Source: Ignavibacteria bacterium
Lineage (GTDB): Bacteria; Bacteroidota; Ignavibacteria; Tepidaquicellales; OLB5
DNA length: 63,319 nt
Direction: 5' to 3'
Assembly: GCA_025451455.1 (NCBI GenBank)
Contig: JANWKI010000133.1
Coordinates: forward strand, 1 to 63,319
Position numbers and translations under genes: made by a program. Positions 17,570 to 42,452 of this stretch are shown here, one piece after another; positions within the stretch are counted from its first letter, which is position 1, and each line of letters opens with the position of its first letter. Below the pieces are notes generated by a model that searched no databases, was not told the DNA's origin, and was given only the letters and a program-made list of their open reading frames with translations.

Positions 17570-17644
17570 CGGGATGTAGCGTAGTCCGGTTATCGCGCCT
17601 GCTTTGGGAGCAGGAGGTCGCAGGTTCGAATCCTGCCATCCCGA
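17570..17644 (+). tRNA. tRNA-Pro (TGG)
   Basis: Hand-folded: CGGGATG TA GCGT AGTCCGGTTA TCGC G CCTGC TTTGGGA GCAGG AGGTC GCAGG TTCGAAT CCTGC CATCCCG A. 75 nt. Confidence 0.88.
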
Positions 17645-27171: not shown

Positions 27172-27248
27172 AAAAATGCTTCTCATAAAATAACGAAGTT
27201 ATTAATGAGTAGTCACGATTCGTCGGGAATTCTTTTAAAATAATTATA

Positions 27249-29036
27249 ATGATATCCATAATATTAATATTACTTATGTTTCTTCTGGGTGTTAAATCAT
27301 CCACGGGACAAAATTTCCAGGATGAACTCAGGGGAGGGAACCCAAATCCTCAAATGAGGAGATTGTCTTCCTTGAATAATTATGTAAAACTGCCAGACAA
27401 TGAAGGCATTGATAATTATGATAACCCCAATGCAACGACCCGTTATATTCAATCTAATGATGGTTTTCTGTCAGTTGGTCCAAATTTCAGGCTCCACCCG
27501 ACAATTGCCCCCGGAAATCAGAGTGAAGTCATCATTTATGCAAGTCCTTTAAATCCTAATCTGGTATTTGCTGCCGCGGTTGCTTTTTGGGGAGGTTCCG
27601 GTTACCCTGTCGGTGGTTATGCTTCCACTAACGGCGGCATCAATTGGTATGGAACCGATACCTTAAGCATATTGAGTTATGGAGACCCTGGTCCCATAAT
27701 AGATAAGAATAATATATATATTATATCCTATTTACATATTTCGGGGCGAATTGGAACTTCATATTCTACAAATTTCGGGCTTTCTTGGTCTGCCCCCGCC
27801 TATTTACCGGGTTCGTCAACATCTTCTGATAAGTGTTTATCAGGCACAAATTATGCCGCGACTTCACCATATTACGGTCATTCATATACAGTATATACGG
27901 AGTTTGAAGCACCTTATGAAAACAGAATAGTATTTTCGAGAACTACAAATAGCGGAGTTTCCTGGACAACCGTAATACCAATAAGTCCTCCGACTTCACC
28001 TGCACTTCCTGCACATCAGGGAGCTGATGTTACCGCGGGACCTGAAGGTAATATTTATGCTATCTGGGCAAAATACATAGGTTCCTTTCCTAACTATTTG
28101 GAAGATTCTCTGGGTTTTGCAAAGTCAACCGACGGCGGTATCACCTGGACAACGAGAAACAACGCAGCAGATATGAACGGCATCCGTACATTTCAATACG
28201 GACCGTGGCCTATAGGGGTGACAAGCTTTCCGAGAATGGACATTGACCGTACAGGCGGAGAAAGAAATGGCTGGATTTATGTAGTGGCGCCGGAAAAGAA
28301 CTTCAGCAGCGGTGATGTCTCTGACATTTTTTTGTGGAGATCAACCGATCAGGGTACTACTTTCAGCGCTCCTATCAGAGTTAATCAGGACCTGGCAGAC
28401 GGCAAACTGCAGTTTCAAGCGGCAATAAATGTTGACCTCGGAGGCGGAGTAAATGTAATTTATCATGATTGCAGAAGTTCAAATGAGAATGATTCAGTCG
28501 ACACATATGTTTCACGCTCGATTGACGGCGGCAACACATGGACCGATATTAAGGCTAATGATGCGAAATTCAGGCCAAACAATTCAAACGGAAATTGGAT
28601 TGGTGATTACATTGGAATTACATCCACTGACACGAAAATCATTCCAAACTGGGCAGACAATAGAACCGGAAGATATCAGTCCTGGGCAACATTAATTGAT
28701 CTTCCTCCTGTTGGCATACAGAATATTGGTTCGGAAATACCGAAGTACTTTTACTTATCACAAAACTATCCAAATCCGTTTAATCCAACTACGAAAATAA
28801 AATTCGCTATTCCCCCCGGAACATCAGTAGCAGAGACATTCCTGTCTGTGTATGATGTATTAGGTAAAGAAATAGCAGTTCTTGTTAACGAACGCCTCCA
28901 ACCGGGAGCTTACGAAGTTAATTGGGATGCATCAAATTATCCGAGCGGGGTTTATTTTTACAAATTGATAGTCCATCAAACCGGAACTTCGACAGGAGAT
29001 TATTCTGAGATAAAGAAGATGGTTTTGATAAAATAG
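27249..29036 (+). CDS. sialidase-like Asp-box propeller with T9SS CTD
   Basis: Asp-boxes STNGGINW, TTNSGVSW, STDGGITW, STDQGTTF and SIDGGNTW, plus the canonical CTD at the C-terminus. Confidence 0.75.
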   Translation: MISIILILLMFLLGVKSSTGQNFQDELRGGNPNPQMRRLSSLNNYVKLPDNEGIDNYDNPNATTRYIQSNDGFLSVGPNFRLHPTIAPGNQSEVIIYASPLNPNLVFAAAVAFWGGSGYPVGGYASTNGGINWYGTDTLSILSYGDPGPIIDKNNIYIISYLHISGRIGTSYSTNFGLSWSAPAYLPGSSTSSDKCLSGTNYAATSPYYGHSYTVYTEFEAPYENRIVFSRTTNSGVSWTTVIPISPPTSPALPAHQGADVTAGPEGNIYAIWAKYIGSFPNYLEDSLGFAKSTDGGITWTTRNNAADMNGIRTFQYGPWPIGVTSFPRMDIDRTGGERNGWIYVVAPEKNFSSGDVSDIFLWRSTDQGTTFSAPIRVNQDLADGKLQFQAAINVDLGGGVNVIYHDCRSSNENDSVDTYVSRSIDGGNTWTDIKANDAKFRPNNSNGNWIGDYIGITSTDTKIIPNWADNRTGRYQSWATLIDLPPVGIQNIGSEIPKYFYLSQNYPNPFNPTTKIKFAIPPGTSVAETFLSVYDVLGKEIAVLVNERLQPGAYEVNWDASNYPSGVYFYKLIVHQTGTSTGDYSEIKKMVLIK

Positions 29037-29146
29037 AGAGTTTAACCCACGACTGTCGCAGTCTCGAATAGTGAGCGGGACAAATAAAAGGGATCATTAA
29101 AGCCAGTTTTTTTGTATTATATTTAGATAATCCAAAGTAGGATAAA

Positions 29147-31258
29147 ATGTTGAACAAAGAGAATCCATCGCAGGTGAACCGATTTATTTCGGGGAAAAAA
29201 CAGTTATTATTTATTATACTCATCTTGTTTGTAACTATTGTTACTAATGCCCAGTGGCAGCAGGATGTGCGGCTGACAAACAATACTGCTATATCCAATT
29301 TAGTACCGAATAACTCATGGGCTATAAAAGCTAATGGTAATATTTTGCATGTTGTGTGGGCCGATAACCGAAACGGGAGCTACGAGATTTATTACAAGCG
29401 CTCAACTGACGGAGGTATAAGCTGGGGAACAGATACTCGGCTGACCACTAATAATAACATTTTATCTCCCGGTCCTTCTGTAGCAATATCCGGCACGACG
29501 GTACATATTGTATGGTGGGATACCCGTAACGGGGGGGGGATTGAGATTTATTACAAACGCTCTGCTGATGAAGGTGTTAGCTGGGGACCGGAGACACGCC
29601 TGACGAATGCCTTTGGTACTTCTTCGACCCCATCTTTATCAGTATCAGGCTCAGTTGTTCATGTTGTTTGGCAGGATGAACGTGATAGCCAGTTTGCTTT
29701 CGCTGAGATATACTACAAACGCTCAACTGATGGAGGCATTACCTGGGAGCCGGACCGCAGGATGACCAATGATCCGCTGAATTCTTTGAATCCTTCAGTA
29801 GCAGTGAACGGTTCAACAGTACAGATATTATGGCAAGACTTTCGTGACGGGAGCATTAACGGAAATAGTGAGATATATTACAAACGTTCAACAGATGACG
29901 GGTTTAGCTGGGGGCAGGATACCAGACTGACGAATGATTCTTCTATTTCAGAGTTATCTTCAGTTGCGGTATCAGGTTCAACTGTAAGTCTTCTTTGGTC
30001 AGATTTCAGAGATGGAAATTCTGAGATATACTACAAACGCTCAATAAATGACGGTATAAGCTGGGGAACAGATACACGGTTAACAAATGATGGTGGGAAT
30101 TCAAGCTCGGCAAATGTTACTGCATCGGGGTTGTATGTTAATGTTACCTGGAGAGATGACCGCGATGGAAACCAGGAAATATACTACAAACGTTCAACAG
30201 ACGGTGGCAGTAGCTGGGGAGCGGATATACAGTTAACCAATAGTGCCGGAATTTCAGACCGACCTTCAATAGCAGTTTGGGGATCAACTGTGCATGTTGT
30301 CTGGCAGGATATCCGGGACGGAAATTTTGAAATATATTACAAACGTAATCCTTCAGGAAATACGGATACCTTTACTGTTTCAGGACAGGTTACTTACAGA
30401 GATAACGGACTGCCAGTTAACAACGGATTTGTTAAAGCATTACATTATGACAGGATTACCACAAATCTAATCACTGTTGATTCAACTGTCATTTTGCCGG
30501 GTGGTTTTTACACTTTACCCCGAGTGCCTGGTGATACTACATATATTATGTATTATCAAAATGATGATGACCCTCTGGACTTCGTGCCGACATATTATCA
30601 ATCTACTATTGACTGGCAACAGGCAGCTACACTGTACCCAAATGAGAATCTGACAAATATTAACGGTCAGGTTTATAGAATTACTAATTCCGGAGCCAGC
30701 AATTTGCATATAGGCGGAACCTGTTATACACTAAATGATCAGCCCCTGACTGCGCTTGATAATGTTATAATTTATGCAAAGATTGGAAATGAATTTAAGA
30801 ATTACGGCATATCAAACTCAAATGGCTTATACACCGCTCCAATGCTTCCGGCAGGCAGCTATACTTTATATGCTTATCGTATTGGTTATAATTATCTCAC
30901 AAGGTATGAAACAATAACTAATAACAGTCTAGATACGATCAATTTCTATTTCGGCTCACCTATTGGTATCATTAATATAACAACATCTGTCCCTTCGCAG
31001 TATAAATTATCCCAGAATTACCCTAACCCATTCAACCCTGTAACAAAGATAAGATTCGCCTTGCCTAAGAGTTCATTTGCGAAGATCGTCATTTACGATT
31101 TGCTTGGCAGGGAAGTAGAAACGCTTGTCAACGAACAGTTAAATTCCGGAACTTACGAAGTGGATTGGTACGCCTCAAAATATTCGAGCGGTGTCTATTT
31201 CTACAAGCTTGAAACGGAAGGTTTTGTTGAAATTAAGAAGATGGTTTTGATAAAGTAG
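29147..31258 (+). CDS. repeat protein (six full and one partial EIYYKRS.DGG.SWG units), carboxypeptidase-regulatory-like domain and T9SS CTD
   Basis: The Asp-box-containing unit ...V.W.D.RDGN.EIYYKRSTDGGISWG.DTRLTN... recurs every ~47-55 aa. It is followed by an Ig-like segment (FTVSGQVTY...) and the CTD. Confidence 0.75.
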   Translation: MLNKENPSQVNRFISGKKQLLFIILILFVTIVTNAQWQQDVRLTNNTAISNLVPNNSWAIKANGNILHVVWADNRNGSYEIYYKRSTDGGISWGTDTRLTTNNNILSPGPSVAISGTTVHIVWWDTRNGGGIEIYYKRSADEGVSWGPETRLTNAFGTSSTPSLSVSGSVVHVVWQDERDSQFAFAEIYYKRSTDGGITWEPDRRMTNDPLNSLNPSVAVNGSTVQILWQDFRDGSINGNSEIYYKRSTDDGFSWGQDTRLTNDSSISELSSVAVSGSTVSLLWSDFRDGNSEIYYKRSINDGISWGTDTRLTNDGGNSSSANVTASGLYVNVTWRDDRDGNQEIYYKRSTDGGSSWGADIQLTNSAGISDRPSIAVWGSTVHVVWQDIRDGNFEIYYKRNPSGNTDTFTVSGQVTYRDNGLPVNNGFVKALHYDRITTNLITVDSTVILPGGFYTLPRVPGDTTYIMYYQNDDDPLDFVPTYYQSTIDWQQAATLYPNENLTNINGQVYRITNSGASNLHIGGTCYTLNDQPLTALDNVIIYAKIGNEFKNYGISNSNGLYTAPMLPAGSYTLYAYRIGYNYLTRYETITNNSLDTINFYFGSPIGIINITTSVPSQYKLSQNYPNPFNPVTKIRFALPKSSFAKIVIYDLLGREVETLVNEQLNSGTYEVDWYASKYSSGVYFYKLETEGFVEIKKMVLIK

Positions 31259-31308: not shown

Positions 31309-31491
31309 TTATATTTGTTTTTGTGGTATTCCCAACACAATACCTGCAGCTGCACCATAGATTGTGGTTATATACCAGCTTGATGTTAACGGACAGGTTC
31401 CACCGTTCGTGCACCCAACAAAGTAGTAGTATGAGTACCCTGCAATACCTCCAATTAAAATATACAATAACATCTTCAGGTATTTCTTCAT
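31309..31491 (-). CDS. small two-TM membrane protein with a C..GG.CP motif
   Basis: 60 aa, two hydrophobic helices around GCTNGGTCPL. Its start overlaps the upstream gene's stop in ATGA (31488-31491). Same strand and context as DUF2892 and thioredoxin. Confidence 0.55.
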   Translation of the reverse strand: MKKYLKMLLYILIGGIAGYSYYYFVGCTNGGTCPLTSSWYITTIYGAAAGIVLGIPQKQI

Positions 31492-31697
31492 CCTATTTTA
31501 TTCCTAAGCGTGCCTATGCCAAAAGGCAGGTAAAGCGGACATGTTCCTACTAAGGATGTTAATACAAAAATTATTGCAATAGCAGAAAGTATTATTCCCA
31601 ATAATCCCGGAATAATACCAGTAAAATATAGTGTAAATATTATAAGAGCTAGTATAACTCTTATGATCTTATCAGTAGAACCCATATTCTTTTTCAT
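31488..31697 (-). CDS. DUF2892 (YgaP-type) membrane protein
   Basis: MKKNMGSTDKIIRVILALIIF...LTSLVGTCPLYLPFGIGT matches the DUF2892 pattern (N.G..DR..R...G ... G.CP.Y..FG). Confidence 0.7.
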   Translation of the reverse strand: MKKNMGSTDKIIRVILALIIFTLYFTGIIPGLLGIILSAIAIIFVLTSLVGTCPLYLPFGIGTLRNKIG

Positions 31698-31711
31698 AAT
31701 TATCTTTAGAT

Positions 31712-32173
31712 TTAGTTTGCTTTCACAAGCAGTATTTCGTTAATTGCCTGCACAAAACCTTCCTTAGGCATTGCACCGCTTGACATCTGCGGTTTCCCGT
31801 CCATCGGAATGAATAAGATAGAAGGAATACTTCTTATTCCGAAGATTGAAGCAAGTTCCTGCTCTTTTTCCGTATCCACTTTATAGATCTGGATCTTACC
31901 GTCGTATTCCTTTGAAAGATCTTCGAGAACCGGGGCAACCATTTTACAGGGACCGCACCAGTCTGCATAGAAATCAATTATTACCGGCTTATCACCTTCG
32001 AACTTCCAGTCCGTATTTGTTTCGTAATTGAATACTTTTTCTTTAAATGTGGCTGCGTTTAAATGTACCATAGTTGTGTTTTTTACCTCGTTGTTTTCTT
32101 TTTTACTGCAGCCCTGGCCCGCAAGAGCCGTTAGTACCGCAGAAATGATTAATAATGTTTTAATTGTTTTCAT
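31712..32173 (-). CDS. exported thioredoxin
   Basis: Signal/lipoprotein-like N-terminus and the WCGPC active site (IIDFYADWCGPCKMVAP). Confidence 0.85.
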   Translation of the reverse strand: MKTIKTLLIISAVLTALAGQGCSKKENNEVKNTTMVHLNAATFKEKVFNYETNTDWKFEGDKPVIIDFYADWCGPCKMVAPVLEDLSKEYDGKIQIYKVDTEKEQELASIFGIRSIPSILFIPMDGKPQMSSGAMPKEGFVQAINEILLVKAN

Positions 32174-32201
32174 ATCCGCTATAACAATAATTAAAATATT
32201 T

Positions 32202-32218
32202 AGTTGCTACTAGCAACT
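32202..32218. promoter_or_regulatory. Operator O1: perfect palindrome AGTTGCTA-C-TAGCAACT
   Basis: Read directly. Lies 29 nt upstream of the thioredoxin ATG in the divergent 367-nt intergenic region. Confidence 0.6.
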
Positions 32219-32253
32219 TATATAAATGATTCTGAAAAGTCAAGAGATGAAAA

Positions 32254-32270
32254 AGGTGCCATTAGCAACC
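32254..32270. promoter_or_regulatory. Operator O2: AGGTGCCA-T-TAGCAACC (imperfect copy)
   Basis: The right half-site core TAGCAAC is intact (the final base is C rather than T). The left half matches 6 of 8 positions. Confidence 0.45.
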
Positions 32271-32346
32271 AATGATATAAATCATGTTTTCCTTTGATAT
32301 AGGACATTTTTTATCTCAGCCATGCCTGTTATTTTAGTATCAAGAA

Positions 32347-32363
32347 AGTTGCTATTAGCGACT
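32347..32363. promoter_or_regulatory. Operator O3: AGTTGCTA-T-TAGCGACT (one mismatch)
   Basis: Read directly. Lies ~180 nt upstream of the octaheme cytochrome gene. Confidence 0.55.
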
Positions 32364-32540
32364 AATTACTGCAAATTCTTTAAAAATCAACAATAAATCG
32401 AAATATATGAAAATCAAAATACTAGTATTCTCTCTATTATTCTCGCTTACTTCTCCAATATAATAATGAAAAAATGCTGCAGTAGGATATGTTGGGAAGA
32501 ATTTGTTATTTATTCATAAAAAACGCGCAGTGAATTAAAT

Positions 32541-33977
32541 ATGAAATATAAAAAGTCTGTTTATTACATGCTCCGCAACATTGGAATAGCACTGATGATG
32601 GTAGTTGTTATGAATTCATGCAACAAAGAATCCGGCACCACTAAGAATACTGCGCCGGCTCCGCAAAATCCCCTGGAAGGACGTGTGCTTCCGCACCTGG
32701 ATCACAGCCCTTATTTCAAAGACTCTATTGAATCTCCCCAGACTGTTACCCGTATGTGTATAAATTGTCATCCCAATAGCGCAAAGGAAGTAATGAAAAC
32801 TGCGCATTGGACATGGATAAGCGGTGATGTTGTGAGAAATGGTAAAGTAATGCCGCTAGGCAAAAAAAATCAGATAAACAACTTCTGCATCAGCATTGTC
32901 GGCAACTGGGCTTCCTGTACAACATGTCACGCAGGTTACGGCTGGGGGGATGAGAATTTCGACTTTTCAAAAGAAGAAAACGTCGATTGTTTGGTATGTC
33001 ACGATGGTTCAGGCACATATGTGAAAACAAAAAGCGGTATGCCTAATAAAAGCGTTAACCTGCGTTTAGTTGCTGGAAGTGTACACCGTCCGGGCAGAGA
33101 GAACTGCGGAATTTGCCATTTTAGCGGCGGCGGAGGTATGGGAGTAAAACACGGCGATCTGGATGAATCACTGATAAATGCAAACCAGGAGCTTGATTTC
33201 CATATGGGCAAACTCAATTTTCAGTGTGTTGATTGCCACACGACTAAAGATCATGTTATTTCAGGTAAAGTAAATACTACTTACACTGAAAAAACCACTG
33301 CAGTGAGATTTAATTGTGAGAATTGTCATACTGAAAAGCCTCATAAAGACCGCCGGCTCAATGAGCACACTGCCAGAATAGCTTGTCAAACATGCCATAT
33401 ACCTGAGTTTGCAAGAAAGCTTCCTACAAAAATGATCTGGGACTGGTCAAAAGCAGGGGATTCAACCAGAATAGACAGTCCGCATGAATACTTAAAAATA
33501 AAGGGTGAATTCAAGTATGAAGAGGAAGTTATTCCAACTTATGCCTGGTTTAACGGAAAAATGGACAGATACGTAATTGGTGATAAACTTGATTCAGAAA
33601 CTGAACACAATATCAATCACCCGATAGGTTCACGTGATGACGAGAAAGCAAAAATATGGCCGTTCAAAGTACATCATGCCATACAGCCCTATGACGAAAT
33701 AAATAACATTCTTATACCTCCGATAACCAGCGGAGAGGGCGGTTACTGGACGAAGTTTGACTGGAGTTACGCAATAGCAACAGGAGCAAAACTAAACAAT
33801 TTACCATACAGCGGAAAGTTTGGTTTTAGTCCAACAAAAATGTACTGGCCCATTACACATATGGTTACAACAAGTAAAAATGCTCTTTCATGTACAGATT
33901 GTCATTCATCCGGAGGTCGTTTGAACTGGAAGGAATTGGGTTATAAAAATGATCCGGTTCAGGGTCCCGGTAAATAA
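32541..33977 (+). CDS. octaheme c-type cytochrome, tetrathionate-reductase (Otr)-like
   Basis: Signal anchor plus eight CXXCH motifs (CINCH, CTTCH, CLVCH, CGICH, CVDCH, CENCH, CQTCH, CTDCH) in 478 aa. The Otr-family assignment rests on size and heme count, and is tentative. Confidence 0.65.
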   Translation: MKYKKSVYYMLRNIGIALMMVVVMNSCNKESGTTKNTAPAPQNPLEGRVLPHLDHSPYFKDSIESPQTVTRMCINCHPNSAKEVMKTAHWTWISGDVVRNGKVMPLGKKNQINNFCISIVGNWASCTTCHAGYGWGDENFDFSKEENVDCLVCHDGSGTYVKTKSGMPNKSVNLRLVAGSVHRPGRENCGICHFSGGGGMGVKHGDLDESLINANQELDFHMGKLNFQCVDCHTTKDHVISGKVNTTYTEKTTAVRFNCENCHTEKPHKDRRLNEHTARIACQTCHIPEFARKLPTKMIWDWSKAGDSTRIDSPHEYLKIKGEFKYEEEVIPTYAWFNGKMDRYVIGDKLDSETEHNINHPIGSRDDEKAKIWPFKVHHAIQPYDEINNILIPPITSGEGGYWTKFDWSYAIATGAKLNNLPYSGKFGFSPTKMYWPITHMVTTSKNALSCTDCHSSGGRLNWKELGYKNDPVQGPGK

Positions 33978-33998
33978 ACACATTAATAGTAAAGTCAA

Positions 33999-34526
33999 AT
34001 GAAAAAAATAGCAAAGCCCGTTAAAAATCCATACTTCGCCGGTTCCATTCTTGGAGTGGTTCTCTTCAGTGCTTATGCTTTAACTCACAGCGGGTTAGGC
34101 GCATCAGGCGCAATTAGCCGCATTCATGTTGCGCTTACCAAGTTGTTATGGCAATCACATGTTGATGTTATCAGTACTTTTGCTGTGATGGGTGCAGGAG
34201 ATACCAATCCATTGGATCATGCCAGTGTATTTCTTTTGATTGGCACATTTGCAGGTGGAATGATCTCAGCATGGTTTAACGGCAGATTAAAAGTTGAAAT
34301 ATTAAAAGGTCCGCAAATTTCGAATGTACAGCGGCTCATTTTTGCTCTGCTAGGAGGATTAATTATGGGCTACGGTGCCAGGTTTGCACGCGGATGTACT
34401 TCAGGTCAGGCATTATCAGGCGGGGCAGTTCTTTCGCTGGGGAGCTGGGCATTTATGTTCAGTGTTTTTACCGGAGGTTATGCAGTTGCTTATTTTGTTC
34501 GCCGTCTCTGGGCTGGATCAAATTAA
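33999..34526 (+). CDS. YeeE/YedE-family sulfur-compound transporter component (half-size)
   Basis: Four to five TM segments and the conserved GCTSGQALSG motif. Confidence 0.7.
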   Translation: MKKIAKPVKNPYFAGSILGVVLFSAYALTHSGLGASGAISRIHVALTKLLWQSHVDVISTFAVMGAGDTNPLDHASVFLLIGTFAGGMISAWFNGRLKVEILKGPQISNVQRLIFALLGGLIMGYGARFARGCTSGQALSGGAVLSLGSWAFMFSVFTGGYAVAYFVRRLWAGSN

Positions 34527-34563
34527 ACCAGTTTCTTTTTATCAATAAGAAAATTAATCTATT

Positions 34564-35760
34564 ATGTTACCTATAGATGTTATTGCAGTTCTTGGAAAAT
34601 TCGGCGGATATGCAGTTTTTGTTCTGATCGGTATCGGTTTTGGAGTTTCACTGGAATTGGCAGGTTTTGGAGATTCAAGAAGACTTGCCGCGCAGTTCTA
34701 TTTAAAAGATATGACAGTTTTAAAAACAATGTTTACCGGCATTGTGGTTGCCGCTCTTTTAATTTTTCTTTCAGCTGCCTTTGGGATACTTGATTTTGCT
34801 CAAATATCCGTGACTCAAACATTCTTATGGCCGGGAATTATTGGCGGACTTATAATGGGTGTTGGATTTATAGTTGGCGGCTATTGCCCGGGTACTTCAC
34901 TGGTTTCAGTAGCAAGCCTAAAAATTGATGGTCTCTTCTTTTTAATTGGCACTATTCTGGGTGCCGGATTTTTTGGCGAATCACTGCCGGCTTTTGAAGA
35001 TTTCTGGAATTCTTCATTTACCGATAGGTACTTGGTTTCTGACTGGCTGGGCTGGTCTATTGGTGCTACTTTATTCGCTGTAACGCTTATGGCATTAGTG
35101 ATGTTCTATGGTGCGGAAAAAGTTGAAGAGTTTTTCAGAACGAAAGGAACAGGAAAAGTATGGTCATGGAAGATCACAAGGCGTTCATATCTTTATGGCG
35201 CTGCTGCTTTGGTCTTTACAGCTTCTCTGGTATGGTTAATCGGACAGCCTGATCCTGTTCGTAAATGGAATTTAATGGAAAACCGCTATTCAGCTCAGCT
35301 TTCTTCACGGGATGTTTTCATTCACCCGCTGGAGTATGTAAAAACATATAATGAGGCTTCGATCAAACTTGTAACTCTCGATATTCGTTCAGAAAATGAA
35401 TTCAAAAATTTCCATCTCACCGGCTCTGAAAATGTTAAACCGGAAAATTTTCTGGATCCAAAGTTTGTCGCACCGCTTTCGCATCTTCCGTCTCAGGGTG
35501 TAGTGATCTTGATAGCAGATAATGATTCTGTTTCTGTTCAGGCATGGAAATACCTGAAAGTTCAGGGAGTAAACAACGTTTACATACTTGAAAATGGGTT
35601 AAATGACTGGAATAAACTTTTCGAAGGCAAAACTATTTCAGGAAAATCTTTCAATGTAGCTTCTCCGCCTTCTGAGGTACTTGGGTTGTTTCCCAAAGAT
35701 GTTTTTACACCGAAAATAAAAATAAGTAACAAAAAACGCTCCGGGGGACTTTGCAGCTAA
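34564..35760 (+). CDS. YeeE/YedE-family membrane domain fused to a C-terminal rhodanese-homology domain that lacks the catalytic Cys
   Basis: YeeE motif GGYCPGTS. The C-terminal ~110 aa is rhodanese-like (LVTLDIRSENEFKNFHLTGSENV ... VVILIADNDSVSVQAWKYL ... LENGLNDW). The active-site loop reads IADNDS where active rhodaneses carry Cys. Confidence 0.7.
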   Translation: MLPIDVIAVLGKFGGYAVFVLIGIGFGVSLELAGFGDSRRLAAQFYLKDMTVLKTMFTGIVVAALLIFLSAAFGILDFAQISVTQTFLWPGIIGGLIMGVGFIVGGYCPGTSLVSVASLKIDGLFFLIGTILGAGFFGESLPAFEDFWNSSFTDRYLVSDWLGWSIGATLFAVTLMALVMFYGAEKVEEFFRTKGTGKVWSWKITRRSYLYGAAALVFTASLVWLIGQPDPVRKWNLMENRYSAQLSSRDVFIHPLEYVKTYNEASIKLVTLDIRSENEFKNFHLTGSENVKPENFLDPKFVAPLSHLPSQGVVILIADNDSVSVQAWKYLKVQGVNNVYILENGLNDWNKLFEGKTISGKSFNVASPPSEVLGLFPKDVFTPKIKISNKKRSGGLCS

Positions 35761-35783
35761 ATCCAAATAAAATATTTGATTGT

Positions 35784-37682
35784 ATGAAATTATTATTGAC
35801 AGCATTTAAAGTATTGATCTATTTGCTGATCATTGGATTATCAGCATCACATGCACTTGCGCAAACATCTACAATCTCAGCTTTAAATAACACGGAGTGC
35901 TTGAAATGCCATGATAAAAATATTTCTGCCAATACCTATAATTCTTCTGTTCATAAATCATTAACATGTACAGCCTGCCACATTCAGGATGGTGAAAATG
36001 CCCTAAGCAAACTGAAAACGAAAAAAAATTCCTGTATTGTCTCTTACAAGCCAATGAACTGCGGCAGCTGTCATAACTCGATTTCAAAAGAACACGAAAC
36101 AAGCATTCATAACTCCACACGGCTTCCTGTATCATGCTCCAAATGCCACGCGAATATCCATACGATCACCTCGATCAAAAATGATAAGAAAGCTGCCGCA
36201 AAGCTGTGTAGCGTGTGTCACGAAAAAGAATCCTCATATTTTAAATCAATTCATTTCCAGGCACTGGAAAAAGGAAATAACGATGCTCCATCCTGCACTG
36301 ATTGTCATAATAAGCATGCAATTAACAAGATTGATAACGTTTCTGAGGGAAGGATATTCCATACCCAGGCCTGCATGAAGTGTCATGCCGATACAAGTTT
36401 GATGCTTCGCAATAAGGTTACAACTATTGCGGCAAAGTCTTATTTTGAAAGTTACCATGGTAAGAACATACGGTTGGGGTATCCTGAAAATGTTGCAGGC
36501 TGCTCTGATTGCCACAGCGCTCATAATATACTTCCGGAAAAAGATACAAACTCAATGGTAAACTCAGCTAATTTAACCAATACCTGCAAGCAATGTCATG
36601 CTGATGCAGGTATTGGATTTTCCAAATTTATAGCTCATGCTGAACCCAACAATCAAAGCAAGTATCCGGCGCTTTTCTGGGTGACAGTTTTTATGAACGC
36701 ACTGCTGGCAGGAACATTCCTATTCTTCTGGATACATTCAATCCTCTGGACTTTCAGGGGCTTTATTGAAAAGAAACATAACCGAGATGCTGAAAATTTT
36801 TCAGGAACTGAACATAACCCCAAGAATAATCTAAAAATTAAAAACAAAGTGTACAGGCGTTTCAGGCCGTTACATATAGTGCTGCACGTTTTTGTTGTAA
36901 CCAGTTTTCTTGCACTTGCTTTGACCGGTCTTCCATTAAAATTTAACTATACTTCATGGGGAAAAACATTAATGGACTTCCTGGGCGGTATCGGAAGCGC
37001 AGGTTTGATCCATCGTATTGCAGCTATAATTACCTTTGGATATTTTTTAGTAACTCTTGTGATGAGTATACGCTTTCTGTTCTCTAAAAAACATTCAAAG
37101 GAAACCTTTTTCAAAAGGCTGTTAGGCCCCGATTCACTTTTCATAAACCGAAAAGATCTGCGGGATATAATGGCTATGTTCCGCTGGTTCTTGTTCCGGG
37201 GTACTAAGCCGGCATTTGACAGGTGGACTTACTGGGAGAAGTTTGACTTCTTAGCAGTTTTCTGGGGAGTTGCAATTATAGGATCAAGCGGGTTAATACT
37301 CTGGCTCCCCGAGTTTTTTGGATACTTTCTGCCCGGCTGGATATTCAATATGGCAACTATAATACATTCAGACGAGGCTCTTTTGGCTGTAGGATTCATC
37401 TTCACTGTTCACTTTTTTAACACGCATTTACGAGCTGAAAAATTTCCTATGGACTTTGTCATTTTCAACGGTCAGGTTACTGAGGAAGAGATGATACACG
37501 AACGCGGCGAACAGTGGGATCGATATCAAAAGCAGGGAATAACAAGCAACTTTGAGGTTAAGAAACCCGGTTCTTTAGTATGGGAAATTGTATTACGTTT
37601 ATTTGGCTTAGCGGCTTTACTTACAGGTTCAATTCTGGCACTGTTTATACTTTATTCAATAATTAGTATAGGGGGGCATTAA
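35784..37682 (+). CDS. nine-heme c-type cytochrome fused to a b-type (HydC/FdnI-like) membrane cytochrome domain; CbcL-like quinol oxidoreductase
   Basis: Signal peptide and nine CXXCH motifs (CLKCH, CTACH, CGSCH, CSKCH, CSVCH, CTDCH, CMKCH, CSDCH, CKQCH). These are followed by ~5 TM helices with conserved His (HIVLHVF, IHRIAAI, IIHSDEALLAVGFIFTVHFFNTH). The ATG at 35784 is preferred over 35751. Confidence 0.7.
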   Translation: MKLLLTAFKVLIYLLIIGLSASHALAQTSTISALNNTECLKCHDKNISANTYNSSVHKSLTCTACHIQDGENALSKLKTKKNSCIVSYKPMNCGSCHNSISKEHETSIHNSTRLPVSCSKCHANIHTITSIKNDKKAAAKLCSVCHEKESSYFKSIHFQALEKGNNDAPSCTDCHNKHAINKIDNVSEGRIFHTQACMKCHADTSLMLRNKVTTIAAKSYFESYHGKNIRLGYPENVAGCSDCHSAHNILPEKDTNSMVNSANLTNTCKQCHADAGIGFSKFIAHAEPNNQSKYPALFWVTVFMNALLAGTFLFFWIHSILWTFRGFIEKKHNRDAENFSGTEHNPKNNLKIKNKVYRRFRPLHIVLHVFVVTSFLALALTGLPLKFNYTSWGKTLMDFLGGIGSAGLIHRIAAIITFGYFLVTLVMSIRFLFSKKHSKETFFKRLLGPDSLFINRKDLRDIMAMFRWFLFRGTKPAFDRWTYWEKFDFLAVFWGVAIIGSSGLILWLPEFFGYFLPGWIFNMATIIHSDEALLAVGFIFTVHFFNTHLRAEKFPMDFVIFNGQVTEEEMIHERGEQWDRYQKQGITSNFEVKKPGSLVWEIVLRLFGLAALLTGSILALFILYSIISIGGH

Positions 37683-37800: not shown

Positions 37801-37817
37801 AGTTGCGTCTAGCAACT
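37801..37817. promoter_or_regulatory. Operator O4: AGTTGCGT-C-TAGCAACT
   Basis: Right half perfect, left half with 2 mismatches. Lies immediately upstream of the MarR gene, consistent with autoregulation. Confidence 0.5.
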
Positions 37818-37827
37818 ATAAAACAAT

Positions 37828-38250
37828 ATGCCGGTGAATAGATCGATAGTAGAACTTATTTTTGAGCTTAAATTTGCCTGTATGTCCAAAGAGGAAAGCA
37901 TCAGGGAAAAACTGGATATTTCGCCTGCCGAATACAGGGGAATACTCTCCCTACGGCCTGGTAAGATAGTATCCTGTATGCAGCTTTCAAATACCATGGG
38001 TCTTTCAAAATCACGAGGCAGCAGGGTTGTGGATAAGCTTATTGCAAACGGTTATTTGAAAGAGGCAAAAAAAGTAGATGATAAGCGTGTATTTAATGTA
38101 ATGCTTACAAAAGCAGGCGAAAAAGCCTTGAAGGAAATAAACGTGCTTATGAAGGAATGTGAAACAGCAATTCTTAAAAATGTACCTAAATCGGAGCTAA
38201 AATCATTTACCCACACGCTTCATAAGATATCAGAAATAGTAAAACCATAG
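37828..38250 (+). CDS. MarR-family transcriptional regulator (OhrR-like context)
   Basis: Winged helix (MQLSNTMGLSKSRGSRVVDKLIANGYLKEAKKVDDKRVFNVMLTKAGEKAL). An alternative ATG lies at 37882. Followed by an OsmC/Ohr-family gene. Confidence 0.75.
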   Translation: MPVNRSIVELIFELKFACMSKEESIREKLDISPAEYRGILSLRPGKIVSCMQLSNTMGLSKSRGSRVVDKLIANGYLKEAKKVDDKRVFNVMLTKAGEKALKEINVLMKECETAILKNVPKSELKSFTHTLHKISEIVKP

Positions 38251-38285: not shown

Positions 38286-38312
38286 AATTTAGTTGCTATT
38301 AGCAACTAAATT
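38286..38312. promoter_or_regulatory. Operator O5: 27-nt perfect palindrome AATTTAGTTGCTA-T-TAGCAACTAAATT
   Basis: Read directly. Lies between the MarR stop (38250) and the OsmC start (38381). The core is identical to the O1 half-sites. Confidence 0.65.
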
Positions 38313-38380: not shown

Positions 38381-38791
38381 ATGAAAATGGAAATATTTTT
38401 CGATGAAGGTAAGAAAGTTAATGCCATCTACAACGGCCATGTGATAAAAACCGACCAGCCTGTTGAAGCAAGCGGAAATGGATCATCACCTGCACCTTTT
38501 GACCTGTTCCTTGCGTCTATTGGGACTTGTGCAGGCATTTACGTAAAATCCTTTTGTATGCAGCGTCAAATACCAACTGATGATATAAGGATAATTCAAT
38601 CAATGAGTTATGACAATGACAGAGGGTTAGTTGGAAAGATCAAACTTGAGATCATGCTTCCTCCGGATTTCCCTGCAAAATACAAAAGTGCAGTTATCAA
38701 TGCAGCAAATCTTTGCGCTGTAAAGAAACATCTGATTAACCCGCCTGAAATTGAAGTGGAAGCAAAAGAAATAAGTGTTATACCTGTGTGA
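38381..38791 (+). CDS. OsmC/Ohr-family peroxiredoxin-like protein
   Basis: 136 aa with the OsmC pattern (GNGSSPAPFDLFLASIGTCAGIY ... ANLCAVKKHL) and two conserved Cys. Confidence 0.7.
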   Translation: MKMEIFFDEGKKVNAIYNGHVIKTDQPVEASGNGSSPAPFDLFLASIGTCAGIYVKSFCMQRQIPTDDIRIIQSMSYDNDRGLVGKIKLEIMLPPDFPAKYKSAVINAANLCAVKKHLINPPEIEVEAKEISVIPV

Positions 38792-39129: not shown

Positions 39130-41190
39130 ATGAAACGCAAAATGAAATCAATATTTTTTACAATTCTTGCATGTATTTTAACAGTTCAGGTTTCCAATTC
39201 GCAATGGGTTTATACTAACGGGCCATATGGGGCGACAGTTCAGGCACTTATTTCCAAGAGCGGCAATATGTTTGCAGCTACTCAGGGAGGCGGAATATAT
39301 ATTACAACAAATAATGGTGTGAACTGGACAGCCTCAAATTCAGGGCTCAGTGCAACAAACATTTATTCACTTGCTGTTTTGGGAAATAATCTTTTTGCAG
39401 GTGCGTTTGGAGGGTGCTTTATATCAACAAATAACGGGGCTAACTGGACTGCCGTAAATTCCGGTTTGACCGCGAGCGATGTTCACGCATTAGCAGTAAG
39501 TGGGACTAATTTGTTTGCCGGGACGTACTCCGGGGTATTTTTCTCAACTAATAACGGCTCGAACTGGTCTCAAATAAATAACGGATTGACTACAACTATT
39601 GTCCAGTCTCTGGCAGTAATCGGGACAAACATATTTGCCGGAACGTTTGGCGGCGGAGTATTTTTGACTACCAACAATGGTGGAAACTGGACGGAGGTTA
39701 ATAACGGTCTTGGAAGTGTCTACATATCCTGTTTACTTGTTAGCGGAACAAATCTTTTTGCAGGCGGGGGAGGGGCCTTCTTCTCATCAGATAACGGAAC
39801 GAGCTGGACAACTATCAATAACGGTCTTACCAATACTAACGTTTTATCTATGGGTGTAAACAACAATTATATTTTTGCCGGGACTTCTGGCTCAGGAGTC
39901 TTTGCGACTACTAATAACGGCCAGCAATGGCTTCCTGCTAATTCGGGTATGAGCGGTGCGACTGTTTCCTCACTCGGAGTATCGGGTTCGAATGTTTTTG
40001 CAGGAACACAGGGTGGAGCATATATTTCCGTAAACAACGGAACTAACTGGACTTCTGTAAGTAATGGAATGCGTTACCTGCTGTGCCAGGGTATATTTTC
40101 TTTTTCAAATAATTTATATTGTGCAACGTGGGGCAGCGGTGTTGCTGTTTCAACTGATAATGGCTCAAGCTGGTTTAATTCAAACAATGGAGTTACCAGT
40201 GCAATTGTTTCTTCATTTGCTTCGATTGGAAGTAATTTATTTGCCGGAACACAGGGAGGAGTATTTAGATCATCCGACAATGGTTTTAACTGGAGTGCAT
40301 CCAGCTCTGGGTTAACAGATCTGCAGGTATTTACTCTCGCGGTTAATAATTCAAATCTATATGCAGGGGCAGGAAGCGGAGTTTTTTATTCAACTAATTC
40401 AGGTTCATCATGGACGAAGATCAGCACAGGACTCCCGCTATTACCTGTATATGCTTTAGCATTTATAGGGAATAATATTTTTGCCGGGCTCTGGTCCGGA
40501 GGTGTGTATTCTTCAACAAATAACGGGCAATCGTGGGTATCAGCAAGCTCGGGGTTGACAAATAATATTGTAATAACACTTGCCGTTAATGGAACAGATC
40601 TTTATGCAGGAACTACAGCCGGATTATTTAAGTCTACAAATTCAGGTAACAGCTGGAATACTGCCAATAACGGGCTTGGAGTTACTTATATATTGTATAT
40701 TTATTCATATAATTCATATTTATTTGCAGGAACCTGGAATGGCGGTGTTTATTTTTCGTCAAATGGGGGAGCTAACTGGATTAACGTAAGTACCGGTCTT
40801 TCAAACTTAGATGACAGGGCTCTGACAGTTCATAATTCCAATCTGTTTGTTGCCGCTGTGGGCGGAGTCTGGAAACGTCCATTAAGTGATATCCTTTCCG
40901 TACAGCAAACTTCAAATACAATACCTGATGAATTTAAATTAGAGCAGAACTATCCTAACCCATTTAACCCAAGCACAAAAATACAATTTGCATTGCCGAA
41001 GAGCTCTTTTGCAAAGCTGGTCGTTTACGATGCGCTTGGCAGGGAAGTGGAAATATTAGTTAATGAACAATTAAATGCAGGCACTTCCGAAGCGGATTGG
41101 TCAGCGGATAAGTTTTCCAGCGGGGTGTATTATTATAAGCTCACAGCAGGGGATTACACGGTAACAAGGAAAATGGTTTTGATGAAATGA
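39130..41190 (+). CDS. large tandem-blade Asp-box-like beta-propeller protein with T9SS CTD
   Basis: About 13 blades (SLAV.G.NLFAGT..GGVF.STNNG.NWT..NNGL). CTD: NYPNPFNPSTKIQFALP...VYDALGREVEILVNEQLNAGT...SGVYYYKL...RKMVLMK. Confidence 0.8.
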   Translation: MKRKMKSIFFTILACILTVQVSNSQWVYTNGPYGATVQALISKSGNMFAATQGGGIYITTNNGVNWTASNSGLSATNIYSLAVLGNNLFAGAFGGCFISTNNGANWTAVNSGLTASDVHALAVSGTNLFAGTYSGVFFSTNNGSNWSQINNGLTTTIVQSLAVIGTNIFAGTFGGGVFLTTNNGGNWTEVNNGLGSVYISCLLVSGTNLFAGGGGAFFSSDNGTSWTTINNGLTNTNVLSMGVNNNYIFAGTSGSGVFATTNNGQQWLPANSGMSGATVSSLGVSGSNVFAGTQGGAYISVNNGTNWTSVSNGMRYLLCQGIFSFSNNLYCATWGSGVAVSTDNGSSWFNSNNGVTSAIVSSFASIGSNLFAGTQGGVFRSSDNGFNWSASSSGLTDLQVFTLAVNNSNLYAGAGSGVFYSTNSGSSWTKISTGLPLLPVYALAFIGNNIFAGLWSGGVYSSTNNGQSWVSASSGLTNNIVITLAVNGTDLYAGTTAGLFKSTNSGNSWNTANNGLGVTYILYIYSYNSYLFAGTWNGGVYFSSNGGANWINVSTGLSNLDDRALTVHNSNLFVAAVGGVWKRPLSDILSVQQTSNTIPDEFKLEQNYPNPFNPSTKIQFALPKSSFAKLVVYDALGREVEILVNEQLNAGTSEADWSADKFSSGVYYYKLTAGDYTVTRKMVLMK

Positions 41191-42362
41191 AAAAGTTCGT
41201 TTTAATATTGTTGTTTGTTTCCGTTGTGTCGTATGCAGACTGGGAAGTACTACCCAACGGTATAGGTTATATTACTGTATATTCATTAGCGAATGGTGGA
41301 AACAATATCTTTGCCGGAACTTATTTTGGAGTGTATAAATCTACAAATAATGGAGACGAATGGTTTCAAACTCCATTAAATAATCCATATACTGTTTACA
41401 CATTACTAGTAAACGGAAATTACGTATTTGCAGGAACGGGTTCTCCAGCTAACGGAGTATTTGTATCAACGAATTTAGGATCAAATTGGACGCAAACTCC
41501 TTTAAACAATAGGACTGTTAATGCATTAACCATAAGTGGAAATAAAATCTTTGCAGGTACATTAGATTATGGAGTATATATTTCTTCTAATAATGGAGCA
41601 ACTTGGACCCAAAGTTCTTTAAATAATCTATGGATTACAGCACTGGTTGCAAATGGAAGTAATATATTTGCTGCTACAGGAGGCAACGGATTATATTTAT
41701 CTACAAATAGCGGGTCGAATTGGACTCAGACTTCTTTTAATTTTAATTTTGTTTGGGCTTTAGGAATAAACGGAAATAATTTATATGCTGGCGTTATTAG
41801 TGGATTATATTATTCTACTAATAATGGAACAAATTGGGTTCAAACTACTTTAAGTTATGAGCCTTCAAGTTTAGTATTTAACGGTAACAATATTTTTGTG
41901 AGCGCTGGGCAAAATGGCGTTTATGTTTCAAACGATAATGGTCTTACTTGGGCGCCAAGGAACGAAGGTATTTCAGGTTTAACAATAAATGAACTAAGTA
42001 TTCATAATAATTATCTTTTTGCAGGAACTAATAATAGAGTTTACAGAAGACCACTAAGTGAACTTATAGGTATCCACCCAATATTCACAGAAATCCCGAA
42101 TCAATTTTCTCTTTCGCAAAACTATCCGAACCCGTTTAACCCGGCAACAAAGATAAGGTTTGCTTTGCCAAAGAGTTCGTTTGCAACAATTGTTGTTTAC
42201 GATGCGCTCGGCAGGGAATTGGAAATGCTTGTCAACGAACAATTAACTGCAGGCACTTACGAAGCGGATTGGAATGCAGACAGGTTTTCAAGCGGGGTAT
42301 ATTATTATAAACTTATTGCAGGGGATTTTACCGAAACGAAGAAGATGGTTTTAGTGAAGTGA
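41187..42362 (+). CDS. tandem-blade beta-propeller protein with T9SS CTD (paralog of 25954..27171)
   Basis: Start overlaps the upstream stop (ATGA). Blades follow the pattern L.VNGNN.FAGT..GVY.STN.GSNWTQT.LNN. Canonical CTD. Confidence 0.8.
   Translation: MKKFVLILLFVSVVSYADWEVLPNGIGYITVYSLANGGNNIFAGTYFGVYKSTNNGDEWFQTPLNNPYTVYTLLVNGNYVFAGTGSPANGVFVSTNLGSNWTQTPLNNRTVNALTISGNKIFAGTLDYGVYISSNNGATWTQSSLNNLWITALVANGSNIFAATGGNGLYLSTNSGSNWTQTSFNFNFVWALGINGNNLYAGVISGLYYSTNNGTNWVQTTLSYEPSSLVFNGNNIFVSAGQNGVYVSNDNGLTWAPRNEGISGLTINELSIHNNYLFAGTNNRVYRRPLSELIGIHPIFTEIPNQFSLSQNYPNPFNPATKIRFALPKSSFATIVVYDALGRELEMLVNEQLTAGTYEADWNADRFSSGVYYYKLIAGDFTETKKMVLVK
42090..42362 (+). repeat. CTD-encoding cassette, copy 1 (pairs with 43425..43697)
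   Basis: My hand alignment gives roughly 17 mismatches and no indels over 273 nt, including an 88-nt run (42268-42355 vs 43603-43690) with no difference. The upstream propeller parts of the two genes are not alignable. Confidence 0.75.
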
Positions 42363-42384
42363 CGTTTGAGCAAATAAGAATTTT

Positions 42385-42410
42385 AAAAGGGGGCGGAAAC
42401 CCCCTTTTTT
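42385..42410 (+). terminator. rho-independent terminator AAAAGGGGG-CGGAAA-CCCCCTTTTTT
   Basis: GC stem plus a T-run, 23 nt after the stop at 42362. Confidence 0.7.
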
Positions 42411-42452
42411 ATATATATCAATCGGGGGAATTGAGGGTTATATTTGGGGAGA

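Follow-up and report, generated by a model that had tools for sequence, protein, structure and literature searches.

What is the native role of the octaheme cytochrome Otr? The OTR protein was crystallised in 2004, its native function is still called cryptic or unestablished in the literature, and according to a 2026 study its physiological function was never established (PMC12949373). The question is raised anew by a stretch of 63,319 nucleotides from an Ignavibacteria bacterium (assembly GCA_025451455.1, contig JANWKI010000133.1; the whole stretch is referred to below as the window), in which an otr gene heads a series of four plus-strand genes. It is followed by the two halves of a YeeE/YedE-type channel, YeeA and YeeB, the second of which is extended by a rhodanese-homology domain and a C-terminal arm with a conserved cysteine (YeeB-Rhd-arm), and by a CbcL-like fusion of a nine-heme domain with a membrane-bound cytochrome b domain. 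We found that in the clan to which the window belongs, Otr is tightly linked to two partners, a dedicated cytochrome that is coupled to quinone and a sulfur channel whose Cys arm resembles a carrier, and the cluster points the question of its role toward sulfur and away from nitrogen. The otr gene of the model organism lacks informative neighbours, which we offer as the reason that the unit went unnoticed.

Conservation of the four-gene unit

The original prediction, which was made from the letters of the window, had described four plus-strand genes, and the open reading frames (ORFs) with eight CXXCH motifs, the two YeeE halves and the ORF with nine CXXCH motifs and a b-type domain were all recovered as described (Table 1). 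The successive genes are spaced by 21, 37 and -10 nt when the fourth gene is counted from its alternative TTG start, although the ATG start, giving a protein of 632 amino acids (aa), is the likelier one. The distribution of the arrangement was assessed in two directions. When one genome per species was scanned with an alignment of Otr sequences, at least 546 relatives were obtained, and the best 80 loci were surveyed. Both YeeA and YeeB-Rhd were found downstream of otr in 70 of the 72 evaluable loci (the eight others end too early to judge), and two loci, L054 and L069, truly lack both. In the reverse direction, metagenomes were scanned with an alignment of YeeB-Rhd, which yielded at least 597 relatives, and Otr was present in all 30 loci with enough upstream sequence. 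These numbers make the clan of the window the larger and more widespread one. YeeB-Rhd relatives with 56-69% identity in Bacteroidota, Kofleriaceae and Opitutaceae lie in this four-gene cassette too, and the arrangement as a whole recurs across around 12 phyla, in around 70 species-representative genomes and on no fewer than 30 contigs from metagenomes. Such recurrence is far beyond chance; the four genes are syntenic in relatives and form a real conserved unit. The single-linkage clustering of the flanking ORFs was noisy owing to antisense ORFs in loci of high GC content, and only clear families were used.

Basically two gene orders can be discerned. In order I, that of the window, Otr is followed by YeeA, YeeB-Rhd and the nine-heme protein with cytochrome b (nine CXXCH motifs in 13 of 15 cases); it is found in Ignavibacteria, Bacteroidota, Opitutaceae and some Myxococcota. 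In order II, Otr is followed by a seven-heme protein with a cytochrome b561 domain (seven CXXCH motifs in 39/43; 71-87 bits against PF01292), and then by YeeA and YeeB-Rhd; it occurs in Bdellovibrionales, Myxococcota, Eisenbacteria, Chloroflexota, Planctomycetota, Spirochaetota, Kiritimatiellae, Gammaproteobacteria and others. Given that the two orders use different multiheme-cytochrome b partners, selection appears to act on the four functions together, and all four are kept even when a component was swapped or has moved. Orthology of the nine-heme and seven-heme partners was considered and rejected on the weak hhalign result (82% probability over 95 columns), and the two are better described as distantly related members of one superfamily. 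In a neighbour-joining tree, order I is monophyletic (19/19) and nested within order II, and the Shewanella-type Otr proteins form a separate clan (24/24). In one gammaproteobacterial metagenome-assembled genome (MAG), Otr is fused to a heptaheme domain (L065:7935-10886; 983 aa, 15 CXXCH motifs) and a MtrA/DmsE-like decaheme cytochrome follows the module (L065:12455-13615), a hint that in some lineages the module is connected to electron conduits of the outer membrane.

According to the original prediction, the combination was not known to have been described as a unit. The full-text literature searched contained no account of the unit or of its Cys tail; the nearest precedent is a passing, one-line mention of a cluster of 'Otr and cytochrome b561' in an Ignavibacteriae MAG (PMC7509429). 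All four parts belong to known families, and it is their obligate combination and the channel-tethered Cys arm that we did not find described in the literature searched.

The first protein scores 556 bits with TIGR04315 (cut-off 375) and matches the structure of Shewanella oneidensis OTR (SO_4144, PDB 1SP3) with E=7e-132 over residues 56-474, with around 50% identity across the whole mature protein. Its CXXCH motifs start at residues 73, 126, 150, 189, 229, 259, 282 and 451, and all 16 heme cysteines are kept in at least 106 of the 107 aligned family sequences. The active-site heme 2 is bound by the motif C126-H130. The distal Lys108 (codon 32862-32864) corresponds to Lys56 of 1SP3 and Cys116 (codon 32886-32888) to Cys64, within the aligned segments GKKNQINNFC of the window and GKKNSINNFC of 1SP3, and both residues are invariant (107/107). 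A Lys that ligates heme 2, together with the Cys next to it in the active site, has been named the defining catalytic signature (bioRxiv 10.1101/2023.04.20.537704), and the two proteins have the eight CXXCH motifs, the heme-2 Lys and the adjacent Cys in common. Judged by these sequence criteria, the protein is a true member of the Otr family and not one of the nitrite/hydroxylamine enzymes, in agreement with the Otr-like label it had been given. Unlike S. oneidensis OTR, the Otr of the window has a lipoprotein-like signal at its N-terminus (…VVVMNSC).

The genomic context of the Shewanella clan differs from that of the window. There, a monoheme cytochrome c and a DUF3373 protein accompany Otr, without YeeAB-Rhd or a cytochrome b fusion, and the electrons of Shewanella OTR are thought to come from CymA (PMC12949373). 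No YeeE, rhodanese or cytochrome b partner was found for otr of the Shewanella/Marinobacter type or of Malonomonas, the latter of which stands alone. The genes that precede the Shewanella/Marinobacter-type otr encode a monoheme cytochrome c of 108 aa and a DUF3373 protein of 566-575 aa (L087:4814-8401, L089:4900-8383), and in S. algae an operon for a Psr/Phs-like molybdoenzyme lies immediately upstream of the otr locus on the opposite strand. Only two positions were found to separate the YeeAB-linked clan from the Shewanella clan, R343/A and P437/R; these were sought as a possible docking site for the arm and are too few to interpret.

The fourth gene has the architecture of CbcL, as had been predicted. 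Behind a signal anchor, the protein carries nine CXXCH motifs within residues 50-283 and then a cytochrome b domain of the FdnI type. Published descriptions of CbcL give nine CX2CH motifs in residues 30-279 followed by a diheme b domain of the HydC/FdnI type (PMC6295460, PMC9129911). The AlphaFold2 (AF2) model (predicted local distance difference test score, pLDDT, of 88) has E. coli FdnI (1kqf_C) as its top PDB match with a TM score of 0.75, and it places six helices after the heme domain, as in CbcL; the five-helix domain that was originally proposed is corrected accordingly. A search of the PDB by sequence gave nothing useful for this protein. Against PF01292 the window protein scores 21.8 bits, below the cut-off of 30.1, and 37 of 40 relatives do match this family; the five transmembrane His residues are kept in at least 116 of 126 relatives. 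The family is large, with 4,375 representative hits (clusters), and one of the 40 CbcL-type relatives carries a rhodanese domain of its own. With Geobacter sulfurreducens CbcL (GSU0274), the protein shares the nine CX2CH motifs in around 250 periplasmic residues and the six helices of the FdnI/HydC type. A design of this kind is expected to exchange electrons between menaquinol/menaquinone and periplasmic partners. Geobacter CbcL serves extracellular electron transfer via periplasmic cytochromes, whereas the gene of the window is locked to Otr and a sulfur channel.

A split channel and its cysteine arm

The second and third genes together cover the PF04143 profile: YeeA matches positions 174-309, the C-half, and YeeB positions 12-205, the N-half. 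Each contributes one conserved cysteine. Cys133 of YeeA (codon 34395-34397, ARGCTSGQ) is kept in 71/71 homologs, and Cys108 of YeeB (codon 34885-34887, GGYCPGTS) is invariant among the aligned homologs; YeeB has more than 2,300 relatives. In the related split system, the lone Cys of PmpB (N-half) matches Cys91 and that of PmpA (C-half) Cys293, both of which are essential in TsuA (PMC11582611, Dahl group). By alignment, Cys133 of YeeA is the equivalent of the periplasm-side Cys293 of TsuA and Cys108 of YeeB that of Cys91. Two half-proteins with one conserved channel Cys each are the common trait of YedE1E2, PmpAB and the window pair. Unlike YedE1E2, PmpAB and TsuA, however, YeeB has two extra helices, a Cys-less rhodanese domain that is predicted to be periplasmic, and the Cys arm, and unlike the known split YeeE transporters the pair lacks a YeeD/TusA partner gene and is obligatorily co-inherited with a multiheme reductase. 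A PDB search with the YeeB sequence gave nothing useful, and the fold search with its model retrieved rhodaneses only and not TsuA for the half-channel, so the assignment as a channel rests on Pfam and the literature.

The C-terminal domain of YeeB (PF00581, 42.3 bits) is, by sequence and fold, a rhodanese-homology domain and not an active rhodanese. It is well folded in the AF2 model (pLDDT 85-93, with 75.7 for the protein overall), and Foldseek matches it to rhodaneses only, among them Sud (1qxn). In the alignment, the place of the catalytic Cys65 of GlpE (E. coli) is taken by S, A, G or T in all 67 homologs and never by Cys. In the window the residue is Ala318 (codon 35515-35517), which lies in the acidic loop ADNDS (IADNDS), and the domain contains no Cys at all, leaving Cys108 and Cys397 as the only cysteines of the protein. 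Considering the fact that the catalytic Cys is absent from all 67 sequences, the Cys-less rhodanese is a fixed family trait and not a sign of decay. The dead rhodanese domain had indeed been noticed originally, but the conserved arm that follows it had been overlooked. The arm ends with the penultimate Cys397 (codon 35752-35754), and its motif is kept in 64 of 67 genome homologs and 70 of 72 metagenome homologs; the exceptions among the former are one frameshift, one run of Ns and one TGA. Across the homologs the tail begins with a strand of the type K-[VI]-K-[LI], continues via a brief basic spacer to a Gly-Gly hinge and the penultimate Cys, and reads ...KIKIxxKKRSGGLC[SG] in order I and ...KVKLxxKxxxxGGCG in order II. 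K384, G395 and C397 are invariant in one of the alignments (A3), within a family in which the rhodanese domains have only around 30% identity. The last nine residues (390-398) are predicted to be disordered (pLDDT 29) on the well-folded domain.

A Cys on a Gly-rich flexible C-terminus (GGCGG) is the hallmark of the SoxY swinging arm, and a penultimate C-terminal Cys that of DsrC. The last residues of the YeeB arm, GGLC[SG] or GGCG in around 95% of the homologs, are analogous to the SoxY motif and not identical to it. No Pfam match to SoxY or SoxZ was found among the window proteins, nor does the window contain such a gene, so the likeness is one of convergence in design. Independently, an otr gene with a divergent soxY/soxZ pair beside it is known from lucinid symbionts (PMC11237559). 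The concept that is shared with SoxYZ, SoxXA, SoxS, SoxW and SoxV is that of a Cys arm, a heme enzyme acting on it and a maintenance system of the periplasmic thioredoxin/DsbD type; unlike in Sox, the arm is fused to a channel, and the octaheme Otr is wired to the quinone pool and not to a soluble cytochrome c. A second parallel is provided by Psr and Sud of Wolinella succinogenes, where the reductase is linked to quinol and receives its sulfur from a rhodanese-fold protein in the periplasm, as is proposed here. Sud has its Cys in the catalytic loop and Psr is a molybdoenzyme, whereas in the window the loop Cys is absent, the Cys is on the tail and the reductase is a multiheme cytochrome.

For the arm to meet Otr, both have to be on the same side of the membrane. 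In TsuA the N-terminus is outside and the first half (H1-H6) also ends outside (PMC7449682). YeeB has two further transmembrane helices after the half-channel (166-193 and 207-226 in the AF2 model), with seven K/R in the loop 186-207 between them, which should thus be cytoplasmic, and five D/E in the preceding loop 139-165, which should be periplasmic; in YeeA both termini are basic, as a C-half would require. Taken together, the topology of TsuA, the loop charges and the two extra helices indicate that the rhodanese domain and the tail should be periplasmic, along with Otr and the c-heme domain, and we infer that Cys133 of YeeA is at the periplasmic mouth of the channel, like Cys293 of TsuA. 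Separate Rhd-arm ORFs in L065 and L082 were excluded from the topology evidence, as these may be frameshift artefacts of long-read MAGs.

In one Caldilineaceae MAG (L077:11026-11073) the codon for the arm Cys is TGA (…GGG-TGA-GGC-TGA-TAA), which could reflect a selenocysteine arm or a simple nonsense change. The hairpin that follows is plausibly spaced, but most homologs have similar hairpins (terminators) behind them and it is therefore not discriminating. The codon bears on the idea that the module handles selenium instead of sulfur, for instance by reducing selenite or selenotrisulfide and importing reduced selenium. YedE relatives have been implicated in selenium metabolism, YeeA gives a weak match to NF033796 (YedE/FdhT; 48 bits, cut-off 350), and selenoprotein versions of both TIGR04315 and YeeE (GUxSG) exist (PMC13188914). 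Nevertheless, neither selD nor any other selenium-utilisation gene was found beside the module in any locus examined, the matches to selenium families are all far below their cut-offs, and the single TGA is equally explained as a nonsense change. We consider a selenium function very improbable.

Proposed sulfur chemistry and the direction of electron flow

Given the conserved Cys arm, the likely mechanism shifts from the one originally proposed, in which a free substrate is reduced and its product imported, to a relay via a carrier arm. We consider the chances evenly balanced that the quinone-coupled Otr works on sulfur borne by the arm and relayed through the channel cysteines, a proposal for which we infer both the redox direction and the substrate. 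On this reading, the region as a whole would be one conserved inner-membrane/periplasm machine that links the quinone pool, periplasmic sulfur chemistry and transmembrane sulfur transfer. By analogy to the GGCGG arm of SoxY, Cys397 would act as a swinging-arm carrier that captures oxidised or zero-valent sulfur (polythionate, polysulfide or S8) in the form of a persulfide or S-thiosulfonate adduct; both tetrathionate and polysulfide are readily attacked by thiols. Otr would then process the adduct at heme 2 with electrons delivered from quinol via the CbcL-like protein, and the leftover sulfane sulfur (or thiosulfate) would pass from the arm to Cys133 of YeeA at the periplasmic mouth, to Cys108 of YeeB and into the cytoplasm. 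The exported thioredoxin may keep the arm reduced or reset it, as SoxS/SoxW do for SoxY. A comparable route has been proposed in Hyphomicrobium, where sulfur on the SoxY Cys would move to the cysteines of a YeeE-type channel with the aid of a periplasmic thiol-disulfide oxidoreductase. The reductive direction, from quinol to Otr, is favoured, if loosely held; it fits the known activities of Otr and the induction of otr by tetrathionate.

Several points speak against this proposal. Purified Shewanella OTR reduces nitrite and hydroxylamine better than tetrathionate, and delta-otr strains of Shewanella ANA-3 had no tetrathionate phenotype in the 2026 study (PMC12949373). The Otr proteins of the Shewanella clan have identical catalytic residues yet no YeeAB-Rhd partner, from which it follows that Otr chemistry does not universally need an arm. 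The periplasmic placement of the arm rests on homology-based topology and charge bias, the steps of the arm chemistry are all putative, and the Cys of the tail might instead ligate a heme, form a tethering disulfide or serve in regulation. A cytoplasmic acceptor (TusA, YeeD) is not encoded in the operon. As to direction, relatives of CbcL, MtoC and MtrH occur in quinol-oxidising as well as quinone-reducing systems (PMC6295460), and an oxidation of sulfide onto the arm with quinone as acceptor is possible on thermodynamic grounds.

With respect to the acceptor, genes for DsrE-like proteins (DrsE_2) were observed near the module in two unrelated phyla (L053:14799-15685 and L001:16635-17096, both on the minus strand), and a DsrC/TusE-like gene whose product ends with ...KPKGCI lies beside one of these two loci. 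They encode possible cytoplasmic sulfur acceptors, anecdotal as two loci and one locus are.

The in-vitro preference for nitrite and hydroxylamine (PMC12949373) is the basis for regarding Otr as a nitrite/hydroxylamine reductase for detoxification or ammonification, to which the sulfur-type genes are unrelated. Against this stands the association of Otr with a Cys-lined sulfur channel and a Cys arm, which holds across phyla and in both search directions. Moreover, no nitrogen-cycle genes are present in the window, and what recurs around the module are genes for thioredoxins, rhodaneses, a CoADR-rhodanese protein and DsrE-like proteins. We judge the nitrogen role to be extremely unlikely, and the sulfur role that had been proposed originally is the one best supported by the context.

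Within a sulfur role, one alternative scheme would be a plain chain from quinol via the CbcL-like protein to an Otr that reduces a free sulfur anion such as tetrathionate, with YeeAB importing thiosulfate and the rhodanese domain and tail being structural or regulatory. OTR does reduce tetrathionate in vitro (PMC12949373), and a 36-fold induction of otr by tetrathionate was seen in Acidobacteriota of sediment (PMC8528874); menaquinol can easily reduce the tetrathionate/thiosulfate couple, for which PMC8528874 quotes +198 mV, TsuA/YeeE imports thiosulfate (PMC7449682), and Otr of the Shewanella type works without an arm partner. This scheme does not account for a Cys-less rhodanese domain with a penultimate-Cys tail in around 95% of the homologs at around 30% domain identity. 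Nor does it account for the presence of a split channel of the YedE1E2 type, which was shown by experiment to import zero-valent sulfur in a Cys-dependent manner (PMC10812762), and a dedicated, strictly co-inherited channel for the import of respiratory waste would be unusual. We therefore regard the free-anion scheme as unlikely. The channel data also modify the original proposal that a sulfur product is imported: the sulfur channel stands, but thiosulfate is not the sole candidate for its cargo.

Alternatively, the system could run in the oxidative direction, with Otr loading sulfide or thiosulfate onto the arm Cys in an SQR- or SoxAX-like manner, electrons passing to quinone and the sulfane sulfur being imported for assimilation, detoxification or cytoplasmic oxidation. 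The occurrence of CbcL/MtoC/MtrH relatives in systems of both directions would permit this, the transfer from sulfide to S0 (about -270 mV, textbook value) and on to menaquinone is exergonic, and the imported species would be a valuable product. The parallel to Sox is close, including the carrier arm, the heme enzyme, the periplasmic thioredoxin and, in L023, a DsbD-like protein; the DsrE-like and DsrC/TusE-like genes adjoining the module in L053 and L001 would fit as well, and in sulfur-oxidising lucinid symbionts otr adjoins divergent soxY/soxZ (PMC11237559). On the other hand, all measured activities of Otr are reductions (PMC12949373), menaquinone cannot be reduced by thiosulfate oxidation, and the inducer of otr, tetrathionate, is an oxidant (PMC8528874). 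In addition, the hosts are mostly anaerobic or facultative heterotrophs and not known sulfur oxidisers. Considering these points the oxidative direction seems improbable.

Returning to the carrier-arm relay in the reductive direction, we tentatively put forward a more specific version, as a possibility that falls short of an even chance. The Otr proteins of the YeeAB-linked clan would be carrier-dependent, their true substrate being the sulfur adduct of the arm Cys, and electrons from the quinone pool would drive a covalent Cys-to-Cys relay inward, in the manner of a 'reverse SoxAX' that is fused to an import gate of its own. If the arm is indeed a co-substrate, its absence would explain the weak tetrathionate reductase activity of isolated OTR. 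If true, the carrier-dependent version assigns a native function to Otr and defines a mode of redox-coupled sulfur uptake that we did not find described. The cluster makes the long-open question of the role of Otr directly testable, by mutation of Cys397 and Cys108 of YeeB, Cys133 of YeeA, and Lys108 and Cys116 of Otr. The module occurs in abundant lineages of sediment, sludge and soil (Ignavibacteria, Bacteroidota, Anaerolineae and Myxococcota) and may represent a route by which sulfur intermediates are cycled that has been overlooked.

Regulation and neighbouring genes

The features of the module and of the genes directly around it are summarised in Table 1. The thioredoxin that is divergently transcribed from otr is, as far as its N-terminus (...LAGQGC-SKK) indicates, probably an exported lipoprotein.

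Table 1. The four-gene unit, its neighbours and the palindrome copies (positions are those of the window)
Feature	Position	Strand	Remarks
Octaheme cytochrome (Otr) gene	32541-33977	+	478 aa; exactly 8 CXXCH motifs
YeeA, YeeE/YedE half	33999-34526	+	175 aa; PF04143; single Cys133, in GCTSGQ
YeeB-Rhd-arm	34564-35760	+	398 aa; PF04143 and PF00581
Rhodanese-homology domain of YeeB	35368-35616	+	residues 269-351; Ala318 at the catalytic-Cys position
C-terminal arm of YeeB, KIKISNKKRSGGLCS	35713-35757	+	basic spacer, Gly-Gly hinge, penultimate Cys397
CbcL-like fusion gene	35784-37682	+	9 CXXCH motifs, then His-rich membrane domain; alternative TTG start at 35751
DUF6132 membrane protein	31309-31491	-	accessory; 60 aa; GGTCPL motif; PF19628, E=5e-11
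YgaP-like transmembrane protein (formerly DUF2892)	31488-31697	-	accessory; 69 aa; GTCPLY motif; PF11127, E=1e-19
Thioredoxin	31712-32173	-	CGPC at residue 73; PF00085, E=2e-26; TIGR01068, 111.6 bits
MarR-family regulator	37828-38250	+	PF12802/PF01047
OsmC/Ohr-like thiol peroxidase-fold protein	38381-38791	+	PF02566, E=4.5e-14
Palindrome copy, AGTTGCTACTAGCAACT	32202-32218		trx/otr divergent promoter region
Palindrome copy 2	32347-32363		one mismatch; upstream of otr
Palindrome copy	37801-37817		two mismatches; immediately upstream of marR
Palindrome copy	38291-38307		perfect; upstream of osmC

The window contains four copies of a 17-bp palindrome, AGTTGCTA-N-TAGCAACT, where 0.03 would be expected. 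Among the 86 loci compared, it is present at matching positions in L007-L010, which are the Ignavibacteria relatives with a MarR gene, and in none of the other 82. The palindrome is a likely MarR operator, with AGTTGCTANTAGCAACT as the putative site sequence, and the copy directly before marR suggests autoregulation. Given its presence at the trx/otr, marR and osmC promoters, the operons of thioredoxin and otr, together with marR and osmC, look like one regulon, in which a MarR repressor would control all four via the common palindrome. The divergent exported thioredoxin and the two small membrane genes, which the original prediction had drawn into the system, are indeed tied in by the shared palindrome, but they are conserved in the Ignavibacteria relatives only. 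The thioredoxin gene is kept in L007-L010, DUF6132 homologs were found in L007-L010 only and YgaP-like homologs in L007 and L008. In L007-L010 the MarR homologs are encoded downstream of the cassette; in two Syntrophobacteraceae-like loci (L026, L027) they are found directly upstream of Otr. OsmC homologs are found in L007-L010 and also upstream of Otr in a Bdellovibrionales locus (L023, 55% identity), where the osmC homolog and a gene for a DsbD_TM-thioredoxin fusion directly precede otr (L023:6436-7973), which echoes the OsmC and thioredoxin of the window as well as the SoxV/SoxW pairing.

Outside the Ignavibacteria lineage the accessory set changes while its thiol-redox flavour stays. The accessory genes of the Opitutaceae encode rhodaneses, thioredoxins, a CoADR-rhodanese protein and an ArsR regulator. 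In 25 loci the gene directly upstream of Otr encodes a helix-turn-helix regulator of the ArsR/SmtB type (e.g. L053:7638-7970, L061:7596-7943). These upstream regulators were tested as BigR/SqrR-type persulfide sensors and scored only as generic ArsR/SmtB (37-40 bits for BigR, cut-off 155). In nine Myxococcota loci a sigma-54 activator is encoded divergently (e.g. L003:4466-5881, minus strand).

In the closest relatives and in Opitutaceae, a gene for an outer-membrane channel of the FadL/Toluene_X type of around 516 aa lies between trx and otr (L007:1975-3531, L008:6243-7793, L005:4514-5914; also in L009 and L010). A tblastn search found no homolog of it anywhere in the window, where the gap between trx and otr (32174-32540) is just 367 bp. 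It is a speculation that such a channel for hydrophobic molecules beside Otr could admit S8 in these relatives.

The remainder of the window consists of housekeeping genes and of proteins sorted by the type IX secretion system (T9SS), as fits an organism of the Ignavibacteria/Bacteroidota type. Arrays of paralogous repeat proteins flank the module on both sides (25954-31258 and 39130-43697); these proteins have N-terminal signals and C-terminal T9SS sorting domains (…YPNPFNP…), and a Por_Secre_tail domain was confirmed on the gene at 23637-25925. The sole Rfam matches in the window are two adjoining tRNA genes, at 17486-17558 and 17570-17644.

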